From an uncultured bacterium (GTDB lineage: Bacteria; Zhuqueibacterota; QNDG01; DTFT01), in NCBI GenBank assembly GCA_963736115.1, contig CAVTNR010000003.1:1-64000 (forward strand): a stretch of DNA of 64,000 bases. The letters run 5' to 3'. The position numbers were made by a program, and so were the translations under genes. The notes beneath the pieces were generated by a model. The model ran no database searches and was not told the DNA's origin. It saw nothing but the letters and a program-made list of their open reading frames with translations. Of the stretch, positions 12,121 through 51,953 are shown piece by piece; position 1 is the stretch's first letter; the number at the start of each line of letters is the position of its first letter.

Positions 12121-12280
12121 TTTGAAGCTCCCCGCGGCGAGGCCGGGGAATCTTCTGTCTGTATTGAAGAAAATATGTTATATTCGCCCGCTTACCCCGC
12201 CGCTTGTCTTCAACAAGAAGATATATAATACCTTGGTCCCGCGCAGCGGGCGGCGTGGTAAGCGAGCGATCAGATTCAGC
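12121..12280 (+). repeat. Hairpin element X, copy 1, with a Y1 mini-element inserted in its second hairpin
   Basis: tttgaagctccccgcggc..ggggaatcttct.tctgta..gaaga..ttatattcg..cgcttaccccgccgc..gcggcg.ggtaagcga..cagattcagc aligns end to end with 51788-51953. Confidence 0.85.
12206..12250 (-). mobile_element. Y1 mini-element (about 45 bp), putative non-autonomous insert
   Basis: Reads cccgctgcgcgggaccaa-(AT-rich)-ttgaagac and interrupts a palindrome that is intact in the 51903-51940 copy. Confidence 0.6.
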
Positions 12281-12989
12281 GCGTCAGCGCCCAGATGACG
12301 ATGTTCGCGCCCATTTTCAGGGCTTCCTCCCGCTTTTCTTCCGGGTCATGGTGAACGCCGGGATCCGCCCACCCGTCCGACAGATTGGATTCGAAAGCAT
12401 AAAAGACCATCAGCCGGCCGCGGTCATCGAAAATGCCCAGCCCACTCGGCGGCTGATTGTCATGTTCGTGGATTTTCGGAAGACCGTCCGAAAAGGGAAA
12501 ATGAACTTGATAAATCCCGTGCGAGAACGGCAGTTCCGCGAGATCCCGGTCCGGGAAAACGGCCTTCATGGCCTGCCTGAAAGACGCGTCCATTCCGTAA
12601 TCGTCGTCCACGAACAGAAATCCCCCGCGCAGCAGATAGGTGCGGAGCCGGGCCGCTTCTTCGGGGCTGAACACGATTTGTCCGTGGCCGGTGATGAACA
12701 GAATCGGATAGGAAAACAGGTCCTCGTCCAGAAGCGTGACATCCACCCGTTCGTCCGGCATGTCCAGGGTCGTCTTCTCGCGGATGAAACGGCAGAGATT
12801 GGGGATGGAGGAGGGATCATTGTACCAGTCCCCTCCGCCCCGGTAATGGACGCGGGCCATGACCGGATGAAGGATCCGGCCTGCCGGAACCGGCCCATCA
12901 TCCGTCTGCCCCGAAAACAGGCTGAGGGGGAATGCCGTGAAAACAGCGGCCCAAACAGCGGCCGCGCATGTCCGCGTAAAGTGTCTCAT
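12276..12989 (-). CDS. DUF4159 domain exported protein
   Basis: Motifs YRGGGDWYND, YPILFITGHG, LRTYLLRGGFLFVDDDYG, LPKIHEHD, DLSDGW-like and ALKMGANI. Confidence 0.88.
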   Translation of the reverse strand: MRHFTRTCAAAVWAAVFTAFPLSLFSGQTDDGPVPAGRILHPVMARVHYRGGGDWYNDPSSIPNLCRFIREKTTLDMPDERVDVTLLDEDLFSYPILFITGHGQIVFSPEEAARLRTYLLRGGFLFVDDDYGMDASFRQAMKAVFPDRDLAELPFSHGIYQVHFPFSDGLPKIHEHDNQPPSGLGIFDDRGRLMVFYAFESNLSDGWADPGVHHDPEEKREEALKMGANIVIWALTR

Positions 12990-13002
12990 GGCCTTGAAAA
13001 TG

Positions 13003-13031
13003 AAAAAAAGCCCCTCGGAAGAAGCAGGGGC
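13003..13031 (-). terminator. Putative intrinsic terminator after surA
   Basis: Minus strand gcccct..aggggc hairpin followed by T7. Confidence 0.55.
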
Positions 13032-13056
13032 CGGGTTTCGTATGGATGCGATCGGT

Positions 13057-49574: not shown

Positions 49575-49850
49575 ATGCTGCCGCTCGGAGAGATCCTCCG
49601 TAGGACACTTCAAGATCTCGGCATTGAAAAGCCCGTCCATCAGTACGACGCCTTGTGGTTGTGGCCGAAGGCCGCCGGAGAAAGGATCGCGGCCGTCACG
49701 GAGGCGGTGCGGATGTCGAACGGCCGGCTGTTCGTGCGCGTGAAAAGCGCCGCTTGGCGCAACGAGCTGGTTTTTCACAAACGGGCCCTGATCCAGAACT
49801 TGAACGGGCTCGCGGGCCGTCCCGTGGTGAATGACATCGTCTGGATATGA
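49575..49850 (+). CDS. dciA: DUF721/DciA family helicase loader
   Basis: LGEIL..LG, WPKAAGERIAAVT, GRLFVRVKSAAWRNEL; position before gyrB. Confidence 0.82.
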   Translation: MLPLGEILRRTLQDLGIEKPVHQYDALWLWPKAAGERIAAVTEAVRMSNGRLFVRVKSAAWRNELVFHKRALIQNLNGLAGRPVVNDIVWI

Positions 49851-49862
49851 GGAAAAAAAGGA

Positions 49863-51773
49863 ATGACCGAAACACACGAAAAATATGATGCGAAAAAAAT
49901 CGTCGTCCTGAAGGGACTGGAAGGCGTCCGCAAGCGCCCCGCCATGTACATCGGCGACACCTCCACGCGCGGGCTTCACCACATCGTGTATGAGGTCGTC
50001 GACAACAGCGTGGACGAATGCCTGGCCGGATACTGCACCCGGATCGATGTCACGATCAACAAGGACGGGAGCGTCACGGTTCTGGACAACGGGCGCGGCA
50101 TTCCCGTGGATATCCACCCGGTTCAGAAACGCCCCGCCCTCGAGGTCGTCATGACCACCCTGCACGCGGGCGGCAAGTTCGACAAGAACACCTACAAGGT
50201 GTCCGGAGGACTGCACGGCGTCGGTGTCTCGGTGACGAACGCGCTTTCAAAGTGGTGCCGGGTCCGCGTGTTCAGGGACGGAACCATCTATCAGCAGGAA
50301 TACAGCACCGGCGTTCCGATGTACGACATGAAAATCGCGGGAAAGGTCAAGGACAAGGTCGGAACCGAAGTCACGTTCATTCCGGATCCGGAGATCTTCA
50401 AGAAAACCGCTTTCGAATTCGACATCCTCAGCCAGCGTCTCATGGAACTCAGCTTCCTGAACAGGGGACTGAAGATCATTCTCCGCGAGGAAACAACGGA
50501 GAAGGAGAAGGTTTTCCACGCCAAAGGCGGTCTTCGCGAATTCGTCGCCTACCTGGATTCCAACCGGACCGCCATTCACCGCAAGCCCGTGGTGATCGAG
50601 AACAAGCGGGAGGATGTGGACATCGATGTCGCTTTCCAGTACAACGACAGCTACCAGGAAAACCTGTTCAGTTTCGTCAACAACATCCCCACTACCGAGG
50701 GCGGAACCCATCTCATCGGATTCAAGGGCGCGCTCACGCGTACTCTGAACGCCTACGCGCAGAAGAACAACCTGATCAAAACCGACGGCCTGGTGCTCAC
50801 AGGCGACGACGTGCGCGAAGGGCTGACGGCGGTGATCAGCGTCAAGGTGCCGGATCCCCAGTTTGAAGGTCAGACCAAGACCAAGCTGGGCAACAGCGAG
50901 GTCCGCGGCATCGTCGAATCCGTGGTCGGGGAGGCCCTGTCCGAGTTTCTCGAACAGAATCCCTCGGAGGCGAAAAAAATCGTCCAGAAGGGAATCGCCG
51001 CCGCCCAGTCCCGCGAGGCGGCCCGCAAGGCCCGCGAACTCACCCGCCGGAAATCGGCCCTCGACAGCGGCACCCTGCCCGGAAAGCTCGCGGACTGCTC
51101 GATCAAGGACCCCGAGCATTGCGAACTCTACCTGGTCGAAGGAGACTCGGCCGGCGGTTCCGCGAAGCAGGGCCGGGACCGTCAGTTTCAGGCGATTCTC
51201 CCGCTGCGCGGCAAGATCCTCAACGTCGAGAAGGCAAGTCTCGAGAAAATACTGAACAACGAGGAAATCAAGACCATTGTTTGCGCCCTCGGCACGGGCA
51301 TCGGCGGAGACGATTTCGACGTGACCCGGCTCCGGTACGGCAAGATCATCATCATGACGGACGCGGATGTGGACGGATCGCATATCCGCACGCTCCTGCT
51401 CACGTTTTTCTTCCGGTACATGCGGGAGCTGATCGAGGGCGGACACATCTACATCGCCCAGCCACCGCTTTTCCGCGCCAAAAACGGGGAGAAGGAGTAT
51501 TACGCGTTCGATGCGGATGACCTCAAGGAGAAGATGGAGCGCCTAGGCAAGGAAGGAACCCACATCCAGCGGTACAAGGGCCTCGGCGAAATGAACGCGG
51601 ACCAGCTGTGGAAGACCACCATGGATCCGGAAAACCGCACCATCCTCCAGGTCACCGTGGACGACGCGGTCGAAGCGGACCAGATTTTCTCCATCCTCAT
51701 GGGTGAAAAGGTGGAGCCCCGCAGGGAATTCATCGAGAAAAACGCGCATTACGTCCGGAATCTGGACGTCTGA
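49863..51773 (+). CDS. gyrB: DNA gyrase subunit B
   Basis: [44 protein letters not shown] and QRYKGLGEM. Confidence 0.98.
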
Positions 51774-51787
51774 CCCGTCCGGACCGG

Positions 51788-51953
51788 TTTGAAGCTCCCC
51801 GCGGCCCGTCCCGCTGCGCGGGACCAAGCTATTCAATTTTTAAATTGTGGAAGGCAAGCCGCGGGAATCTTCTATCTGTAGAGAAGAGATCATTTTATAT
51901 TCGATCGCTTACCCCGCCGCTAGCGGCGGGGTAAGCGATCAGACAGATTCAGC
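51788..51953 (+). repeat. Hairpin element X, copy 2, with a Y1 insert in its first hairpin and a perfect 38-bp palindrome
   Basis: Aligns with 12121-12280. 51903-51940 gatcgcttaccccgccgctagcggcggggtaagcgatc is a perfect palindrome. Confidence 0.85.
51810..51855 (+). mobile_element. Y1 mini-element
   Basis: cccgctgcgcgggaccaag-(AT-rich)-tggaaggc, placed immediately before the aagc loop of the host hairpin. Confidence 0.6.

Follow-up and report, generated by a model that had tools for sequence, protein, structure and literature searches.

The first 64,000 nt of contig CAVTNR010000003.1 (forward strand, positions 1 to 64,000; the window), from the assembly GCA_963736115.1 of an uncultured bacterium of the Zhuqueibacterota, contain six intergenic spacers that hold non-coding hairpin repeats of two families, X and W, some of which carry in their hairpins a much smaller repeat, Y, of 41–47 nt. 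The neighbours of the six spacers are housekeeping genes, for YidC, an LptF/G permease, a MatE transporter, an S41 peptidase, pyruvate phosphate dikinase, GyrB, and GyrA. An earlier reading of the DNA letters, made without database searches (the sequence-only reading), had placed X and W repeats in these spacers, and all six are confirmed here. The genome that holds the window (G000; 3.34 Mb in 31 contigs, approximately 60% G+C, 87% complete, with the window on contig C3) was compared with those of three congeners (G001–G003), in which flanking genes share 79–96% DNA identity.

The element X1 (12122..12274, plus strand; repeat family D5) begins with TTGAAGCT and continues with an empty 5' hairpin, a Z module (approximately 12149-12186), a 3' hairpin with a Y copy in its loop (12205..12250, minus strand; nhmmer hit C3:12250(-), 42.5 bits), and a tail ending ..GATCAGA; its target motif, TTCA (TGAA on the other strand), is at 12275-12278. 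X3 (51789..51947, plus strand) lies in the gyrB-gyrA spacer; its 5' hairpin has a Y in the loop (51810..51853, plus strand, ending TGGAAG; nhmmer hit C3:51810(+), 42.7 bits), followed by a Z module (approximately 51866-51903) and an empty 3' hairpin, with the target motif TTCA at 51948-51951. X2 (25184..25320, minus strand) is a short X in reverse orientation and has no Z module; on the plus strand it reads TCCGACAGCGAGCG...GGGGAGCTTCAA, after TTCGA. It carries two Y copies, one of the CCGGC-hairpin subtype at the 3' foot of its hairpin (25204..25247, plus strand, opposite to X; class "X foot") and one in the loop of its 5' hairpin (25261..25304, minus strand, the same as X; nhmmer hit C3:25304(-), 43.7 bits).

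W1 (28092..28248, plus strand) and W2 (41606..41762, plus strand, upstream of the S41 peptidase gene) contain no Y and are 82% identical over 162 nt (repeat family D1); W1 consists of TTGAAGAA, two small hairpins, and a long hairpin ending ..GGCCGCCCGA. W3 (43440..43643, plus strand, upstream of the pyruvate phosphate dikinase gene) is a diverged member with a Y of the CCGG-hairpin subtype at the foot of its second hairpin (43506..43549, minus strand; nhmmer hit C3:43549(-), 32.3 bits). The count of five Y copies in the window, confined to the spacers of X1, X2 (two copies), X3, and W3, agrees with the sequence-only reading; a Y-specific pattern matches all five, against 0.20 matches expected, and none of 100 shuffles reaches five. 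Empty and filled forms of the same site coexist in the window, as that reading had also stated: the X 5' hairpin is empty in X1 and filled in X3, the X 3' hairpin is empty in X3 and filled in X1, and the W hairpin foot holds a Y in W3 but none in W1 or W2.

Anatomy of the Repeats and Nesting of Y

X and W are dispersed throughout the genome rather than local to the window; the six spacers gave 562 BLAST matches in G000, which, merged with the Y hits, form 170 clusters with a total of 22.9 kb. By crude gene calls, 154 of the 170 clusters are intergenic, and all types of spacer are occupied at about background proportions. Rfam 15 gave no match anywhere in the window, either at the gathering threshold or at E ≤ 1.

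X has a modular order: TTGAAGCT, a hairpin (CCCCGCSG-CAAG-CSGCGGGG), an optional Z module (AATCTTCTATCTGTAGAGAAGA..ATATTCGCTCGCTTA and a second hairpin of the same kind), and the tail AATGCGCTCGCTGACAGA. Its simplest form, X0 (approximately 45 nt), has a single hairpin between TGAAGCT and the tail; on the bottom strand it comprises an 18-nt leader, one hairpin, and AGCTTCAA. W opens with (T/A)TGAAGGA, continues with two small hairpins of the same type, and closes with a long hairpin, ..CGTCGGAGCGGCCAGAAG...CTTCTGGCCGCCCGA. The bottom-strand readings of the two families are designated X* and W*: X* is TCTG(A/T)CAGCGAGCGCATT, one or two CCCCGCSGC-TTG-CSGCGGGG hairpins, and AG-CTTCAA, and W* is TCGGGCGGCCAGAAG.. 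(the long hairpin), two small hairpins, and TC-CTTCA(T/A). The consensus ends are TTGAAG../..CAGA for X, ..GCCCGA for W, and hairpin-AYCAAG..ATTGAAG for Y. The only terminal repeat is a 7-nt pseudo-repeat, TGAAKCT, half of which is target, and the elements show neither the terminal inverted repeats nor the fixed-length target duplication of classical miniature inverted-repeat transposable elements.

Iterated nhmmer searches of G000 (E ≤ 0.01) found 154, then 176, and finally 182 copies of Y. The element consists of a 5-bp GC hairpin, A(C/T)CAAG, a spacer, and ATTGAAG; the hairpin is mostly CCCGC-NNN-GCGGG and sometimes CCGGC..GCCGG or GCCGC..GCGGC, and the spacer is either AT-rich (approximately 20 nt) or of the ACAGATGCCGGCT type (approximately 17 nt). 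The 5 bp of the stem are paired in 94–100 of 115 distinct copies, and one pair swaps from CG to GC (80 versus 11). Folded as single-stranded DNA, X3 (z = -7.0; the Y hairpin is enclosed by the host stem) and W3 (z = -4.0) have strong structures, and X2 as a whole has no significant structure compared with shuffles (z = -0.97). A role of Y as a promoter, an attC-like site, or an IS91-type end was considered and set aside, as inspection by eye gave no fitting spacing or motif.

Y sits at fixed sites in its hosts. With left and right flanks matched separately to Y-free reference copies of X and W, at least 108 of the 182 copies fall into four site classes: 73 are in the loop of an X hairpin, immediately 5' of the loop CAAG and on the X strand; the 3' foot of an X hairpin (GGG^GAAT) holds 23 more, on the strand opposite to X; and six each are in W loops and at the 3' foot of a W hairpin. 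The sequence-only reading had Y occurring exclusively inside X and W, which does not hold genome-wide; 13 copies are in a repetitive extragenic palindrome (REP) of the GTAGGTCCGAAA type (REP2), five are in a REP of the GGTAGCCGC type (REP1), 11 are in two further repeat families, and 11 stand in tandem behind another Y. The other 34 copies occupy a different X/W position or could not be assigned to a class; inspection by eye suggests a variant X or W for many of them and a unique context for approximately eight. Hosts of Y comprise at least six unrelated families and a few unique contexts. An exact complementary match of at least 7 nt brackets 67 of the 182 copies, compared with 64 of 2000 random positions and 27 of 182 copies whose flanks were re-paired at random.

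Subfamilies of Y are site-specific. Subtype 11 (36 of 40 copies) and a second large subfamily (23 of 27) are found in loops, and both X hairpins are occupied; subtypes 33, 16, and 32 are mainly at foot sites, and ACAGAT-type Y is found in REP2 and in tandem arrays. The same loop site is filled by three different Y subfamilies in different host copies.

Presence and Absence among Related Genomes

All six elements of the window are polymorphic among G000–G003. The orthologous site of X1 is empty in G003 and has a shorter X form in G001; the whole X2 block is missing in G001, where the site reads ..CGTTCGAG|TCCGG..; and the X3 site is empty in G002 and G003 and holds only a simple hairpin form, of approximately 48 nt, in G001. 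W1 is absent from the orthologous site in G001, and W2 is present in G001 and G003 and absent in G002 (..GGAAACCC|TTTAAAAG..). W3 is absent from the aligned G001 and G003 sequences; in G002, BLAST coordinates (without an alignment) leave no room for it, and two metagenome contigs, from four sequencing runs examined, bridge the site without W3. The runs listed as containing the sequence include none of RNA, and all have small shares, of at most 0.15.

The genome-wide comparison used 1.49 Mb of G001 sequence, with a cluster regarded as placed if both of its 400-bp anchors were on one G001 contig. Sixty-two of the 170 G000 clusters could be placed, and in 33 of these the G001 interval is shorter by at least 40 nt between flanks that are 80–95% identical; a stricter cut of 60 nt leaves 31 of the 33 pairs, aligned. 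In the reverse direction, 38 of 56 G001 clusters were placed on G000, where 14 elements of at least 60 bp are missing from the corresponding site and 15 sites are filled in both genomes. Since empty sites occur in both directions, both lineages have private copies.

Y copies also differ within shared hosts. In cluster 146, an orthologous W, the first hairpin is CTGCCG-CAA-GCATCGG in G001, whereas in G000 a 44-nt Y separates the 5' arm from CAA; this W also carries two foot-site Y copies in G001, at a place taken up in G000 by no more than a small hairpin. In cluster 113, an orthologous X, G000 has an empty loop and a Z module, and G001 lacks Z but has a foot-site Y as well as two tandem Y copies in the loop. 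The two genomes differ by a single Y unit in each of clusters 13 and 100, and cluster 45 contains a 47-nt Y in a unique context whose ortholog is empty. The Y of cluster 32 is kept at the orthologous site in both species (approximately 80% identity), so some copies are old. The sequence-only reading had proposed a comparison of orthologous spacers; made here, it shows whole X and W elements, and Y inside shared hosts, to be present or absent as precise blocks.

Three loci show other kinds of change. In cluster 13 (C9:30545-30631 and its G001 ortholog), runs of the pentamer TCCCG, of unequal length, precede the Y hairpin inside REP2, and there are two 38-nt Y units in one species and three in the other; the pentamer runs and the unit number point to slippage at hairpins. 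Cluster 108 (C14:183938-184187 and its G001 ortholog) has X at the same site in opposite orientation, indicating either that the site was hit twice or that the element was inverted. At C22:7438-7481 and its flanks, G000 has a 109-nt insertion relative to G001, directly after an apparent tRNA 3' end; a 16-nt sequence, GTCTCCCGCTCTCCGC, is present in duplicate there, and a Y-like tail (ACCAAG..ATTGAAG) that lacks the usual hairpin forms the end of the insert.

A strict Y pattern was found in nine of 41 genomes searched (54 matches in G000, 32 in G001, 40 in G002, 20 in G003, 15 in G026, which belongs to another family of the order, and one to three in four more), and the reversed pattern, used as a control, gave none in all 41. 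The X* left-end motif was found in eight of 31 genomes of the order (46 in G000, 45 in G001, 24 in G002, 33 in G003, 16 in G025, 178 in G017, and one or two in two more; control, none). G017 has more X* motifs than any other genome searched and no match to the strict Y pattern, and G026, G023, and G028 have Y-like units and no X* motif; the separate ranges indicate that hosts and guests are separate families. In the latter three genomes (loci L004, L005, and L006, in G028, G023, and G026, respectively), the Y-like unit stands between a conserved AT-rich hairpin, GTACTTTTCTTT..AAAGAAAAGTAC, which precedes it, and ACAAAAGAAA..GCCTTTTTGCA, which follows it, a composite different from that in G000. 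The X hairpin loops of G025 and G017 hold other small hairpins, so filled loops characterize the X family in several genera.

Insertion Sites, Strand, and Candidate Enzymes

Sites were analyzed in the 33 G000/G001 pairs whose G001 interval contains no N, does not exceed 230 nt, and falls short of its G000 counterpart by 40 nt or more; 29 of these have a recognizable X* or W* start. A boundary was regarded as resolved where at least 22 of 28 flank bases are identical, and only 18 of the 33 pairs (10 X* and 8 W*) are cleanly resolved by this measure. No 3- or 4-bp duplication is present in any of the 18 resolved empty/filled pairs, which bears out the earlier claim that clear target duplications are lacking.

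In the resolved pairs, X* starts with TCTG(A/T)CAGCGAGCG or TCTGATCGCTCGC and ends with TCAA in six of 10 cases; the empty G001 sites end with TGAA in five of the 10 and with TGAT (two), CGAG, TGGA, or TAAA in the rest, two of the 10 solutions (clusters 54 and 88) being doubtful by eye. W* starts with TCGGGCGGCCAGAA or TCGGGCTGTCAGAA, and its eight empty sites end with TTAA (three), TCGA (two), TCAA, TCAG, and CCAT. Genome-wide, the four bases before X* are T in 45, G in 54, A in 57, and A in 58 of 61 copies. X* and W* thus appear to insert 3' of a short motif (TGAA for the former; TTAA or TCGA for the latter), and their own 3' end resembles the target. An X0 located directly behind the CTTCAA end of another X (C14:183900) is consistent with such a likeness between target and element terminus.

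Each contig has a steady GC skew, and the G-rich strand carries X*/W* in 76 of 107 clusters (71%; p = 1.6e-5). Genes themselves are distributed 1448:668 between the G-rich and the other strand. The X*/W* ratio is 41:16 where flanking genes are on the G-rich strand and 13:8 where they are on the other strand, the latter too few for a separate test; as the bias has the same direction for both orientations of the flanking genes, X*/W* orientation follows replication, not transcription. By the usual reading of skew, the G-rich strand is the lagging-strand template. Elements of the IS200/IS605 family act on that template, according to the available part of PMC3333891.

On contig C3 the GC skew switches from about -0.05 to +0.03 at roughly 40-60 kb, and open reading frames (ORFs) at 46766-48163 and 48452-49570 lie directly upstream of gyrB and gyrA. 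The skew switch and these ORFs suggest that the window probably spans the replication origin, with W2, W3, and X3 in that region. Two other repeats are present in the window. A 21-nt palindromic repeat, ATGTTCCACGTGGAACATTTT (family D16), occurs between consecutive minus-strand ORFs at 21005-21025, 22927-22947, and 24401-24421; one copy has 86% identity to the other two, which do not differ from each other, and the repeat resembles an operator or junction motif. At 1993-2112, a 32-nt repeat (family D2) is present in five copies that overlap at a period of 15 nt, probably a repetitive coding stretch.

The window has no transposase gene, as the sequence-only reading stated; elsewhere, G000 has three genes for REP-associated tyrosine transposases (RAYTs) and one IS110-family gene. 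The three RAYT proteins exceed the NCBIfam cut-off for the family. The gene at C17:75006-75827 has no close ortholog in the congeners, that at C2:71370-71945 has one in G001 only, and that at C19:57393-57962 has orthologs of 72–75% identity in all three. Each is flanked by its own classical REP (GGTAGCCGC.., GTAGGTCCGAAA.., and GCCGCG..GGCACTCCC). Motif searches of G000 gave approximately 24 hits for REP1 and approximately 72 for REP2, and GTAG tags are confined to these two repeats.

A 361-amino-acid transposase of the IS110 family is encoded at C14:87546-88628, in an AT-rich island (C14:86000-89800) with no X, W, or Y at its ends. A weak IS110-type fragment (C21:72046-72168; 20.6 bits, below the cut-off) has an X* end motif (C21:71992-72009) and a Y copy (C21:71945) at a distance of approximately 40-100 nt. 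Pairs of X*/W* ends 0.6-6 kb apart proved to be chance motif matches in ordinary genes, and a search with PF04986 (IS91 family) gave no match, with a control that was likewise silent in every genome. The sequence-only reading had proposed a search for transposases flanked by the same ends; Y1 and IS110 genes are present, but neither the three RAYT genes nor the full IS110 gene carries X, W, or Y ends.

Origin of the Nesting and Relation to Known Repeats

These features suggest that the spacers hold a hierarchy of small non-autonomous hairpin mobile repeats, moved as single-stranded DNA by a Y1 HUH enzyme, a reading that we regard as on balance probable. At the first level, X and W are miniature host elements gained and lost as whole blocks; at the second, Y guests of 41–47 nt occupy fixed places in host hairpins, either the loop (on the host strand) or the 3' foot (on the other strand). 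The DNA would be cut and rejoined as a single strand by an IS200/IS605-type TnpA or by a RAYT acting in trans, with loops and feet being hit because they are single-stranded or extruded there, and gene conversion between homologous hairpins may spread guests further. The TnpA-REP enzyme, as described in the available part of PMC3333891, cuts only single-stranded DNA, has low site specificity, requiring little sequence at the cut, and can produce variants and tandem copies in vitro. The sequence-only reading had proposed a single-strand hierarchy of the same kind; non-coding hairpin units, nesting at fixed sites, gain and loss in blocks, and a mode of insertion of X and W that resembles IS200/IS605 agree with it, but no HUH enzyme is tied to the repeats.

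Several observations weigh against this interpretation. All RAYT genes examined (three in G000, three further in G001, and one in G026) have REPs of other types at their flanks and no X, W, or Y, and these repeats, unlike classical REPs, lack a GTAG (or CGTC) tag. A TnpB-type domain was sought in G000 and not found, with the positive control working, and no long copy with X*/W* ends encloses a transposase ORF; the genomes are 76–96% complete (G000, 87%), so the absence of a gene from an assembly does not show its absence from the organism. The Y1 genes of G017 and G025 have other ends, that of G017 being one gene fragment with other repeats beside it. The insertion rule is drawn from the limited set of resolved boundaries and, with no conserved sequence on the 5' flank of Y, the rule of insertion 3' of a tetranucleotide does not fit the guests. 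Y copies outside X and W have no replication-strand bias (35:24), and the strand bias of IS200/IS605 families is stronger than the 71% of X*/W*. The four X/W hairpins have nearly identical arms (CCCCGCSG..CSGCGGGG), so host amplification or gene conversion could account for the spread of many Y copies.

The last point leads to another explanation, which we consider rather unlikely, in which Y is not, or is no longer, self-mobile; a few old insertions would have been amplified with X and W and shuffled by recombination, gene conversion, and slippage, and nesting would be a by-product. A single donor would fit all four hairpins with matching arms, the varying tandem number of the 38-nt subtype and the TCCCG expansion beside it in cluster 13 are signs of slippage, the Y of cluster 32 is old, and Y has no strand bias of its own. 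Against this explanation stand the breadth of Y hosts (six or more unrelated families and a few unique contexts, one of which, cluster 45, has an empty ortholog) and the presence of three subfamilies at one loop site in different host copies; Y-like units in other genera, moreover, stand beside a different hairpin and without X. It is very improbable that the units are altogether immobile, as selected structural or regulatory modules such as terminators, mRNA stabilizers, protein binding sites, or small RNAs. The strong folds of X3 and W3, the compensatory changes in the Y stem, and the largely intergenic location would suit such modules, but most orthologous sites are empty in a congener between well-conserved flanks, both species have private copies, clusters are found in all spacer types without marked preference, X2 as a whole folds no better than shuffles, and Rfam recognizes none of the units.

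The enzyme could also be of a different kind. Recognition of the hairpins by an IS110/IS1111-type recombinase, an IS3-type transposase (for example, that of IS1397), or an undescribed enzyme encoded in the unassembled part of the genome is, in our judgment, distinctly unlikely. IS1397 and a survey by Tobes and Pareja reportedly concern insertion sequences that target REP hairpins. G000 does have an IS110-family gene and a weak fragment, the latter near an X* motif and a Y copy; yet the full IS110 copy lies in an AT-rich island with ends free of X, W, and Y, and IS3-type enzymes make target duplications, of which there are none in the 18 resolved pairs. Single-stranded Y1 chemistry is a better match for the likeness of target and element end and for the preference for one replication strand. 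Targeting of REP hairpins by insertion sequences is a known phenomenon, an example being ISPpu9, which lies in REPs (PMC12288879, in the part available).

Within the hierarchy of single-stranded elements, X0, W, and Y may form one class of minimal units (GC hairpin, two bases, CTTCAA), with Y a circularly permuted unit of the X0 type; this extension is an unlikely one. Read on the same strand, X0* has the order leader, hairpin, NN, CTTCAA, and Y has the order CTTCAA, spacer, hairpin. If an excised single-stranded circle were opened again at a different site and then integrated at the exposed loop or foot of another hairpin, exactly this permuted register would result, and such an origin would explain the common CTTCAA motif, the tandem Y arrays, and the self-similar nesting. 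A circle re-opened elsewhere before integration is also the model put forward, in the available part of PMC3333891, for the variability of bacterial interspersed mosaic elements (BIMEs). If this is true, one-hairpin units of approximately 45 nt would rank with the smallest known transposable units; a domesticated Y1 enzyme would move them in trans, and they would build new targets for themselves.

The X/W/Y system is a mosaic relative of REP/BIME repeats, of palindrome-associated mosaics, and of miniature elements of the IS200 type. Among other intergenic repeats, ERIC/IRU, BOX, and the neisserial mosaic repeats are imperfect palindromes with short and long forms that arise from blocks at fixed internal positions or by modular assembly; unlike Y, their inserts are not known as independent dispersed families with a range of their own, and the sequences are dissimilar. 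The small dispersed repeats (SDRs) of Nostoc, reported by Elhai and colleagues in 2008, are said to be 21-27 nt long, to share a common fold, and to be nested in other repeats and in their own copies, and an RNA intermediate was reportedly proposed for them. They belong to another phylum and differ in sequence, and the hosts described here have in addition a DNA-strand bias and an IS200-like target rule.

With REP/BIME/RAYT systems and REPINs, the repeats of G000 share high-copy intergenic palindromes that form mosaics and tandem arrays and vary among strains, and the genome encodes Y1 HUH enzymes. REP clusters adjoin RAYT genes (PMC3116915, in the part available), as REP1 and REP2 do in G000. 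REPIN clusters are described in the same portion of that paper as tandem or unordered, not nested, whereas here guests lie inside hairpin loops, including the loops of true GTAG REPs.

X and W are like the IS200/IS605 family and its palindrome-associated transposable elements in lacking the usual terminal inverted repeats and target duplications and in their subterminal hairpins; they also appear to share its preference for one replication strand, insertion 3' of a short motif, and the resemblance of the element's 3' end to that motif. The system differs from that family in that no TnpA or TnpB copy with X or W ends was found, the smallest form is a single hairpin of approximately 45 nt, the strand bias is moderate, and Y breaks the target rule. 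Some of the family properties are given in the available part of PMC3333891.

The sequence-only reading knew of no description of the nested arrangement, a statement to be qualified in view of the nested SDRs and of REPs inserted within palindromes. Nothing closer than the systems compared here was found in the open literature. REPs inserted within palindromes were mentioned by Di Nocera et al. (2013), in one paragraph and without detailed investigation by the authors, as far as the available part of the paper extends (PMC3733652). Their case is alike in having a small palindrome inside a larger one; compared with what that part reports, the system in G000 has several levels, site-specific guest subfamilies, orthologous empty sites, and an insertion rule for the hosts.

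The origin, diversification, and spread of REP-like repeats are still open questions. RAYT enzymes cut DNA in vitro, and the movement of REPs has rarely been caught. This lineage offers multi-level elements, many clean empty/filled sites between close species, and a host of approximately 45 nt with a readable insertion rule and strand bias; guests that choose loops or feet and the distinct ranges of hosts and guests add to its value. It allows direct tests of whether hairpins serve as both substrate and target, whether BIME-type mosaics grow by insertion, beyond recombination alone, and whether one enzyme serves several unrelated repeat families. Such repeats also break assemblies and mark strain-level variation in these uncultured bacteria of sediments and digesters.

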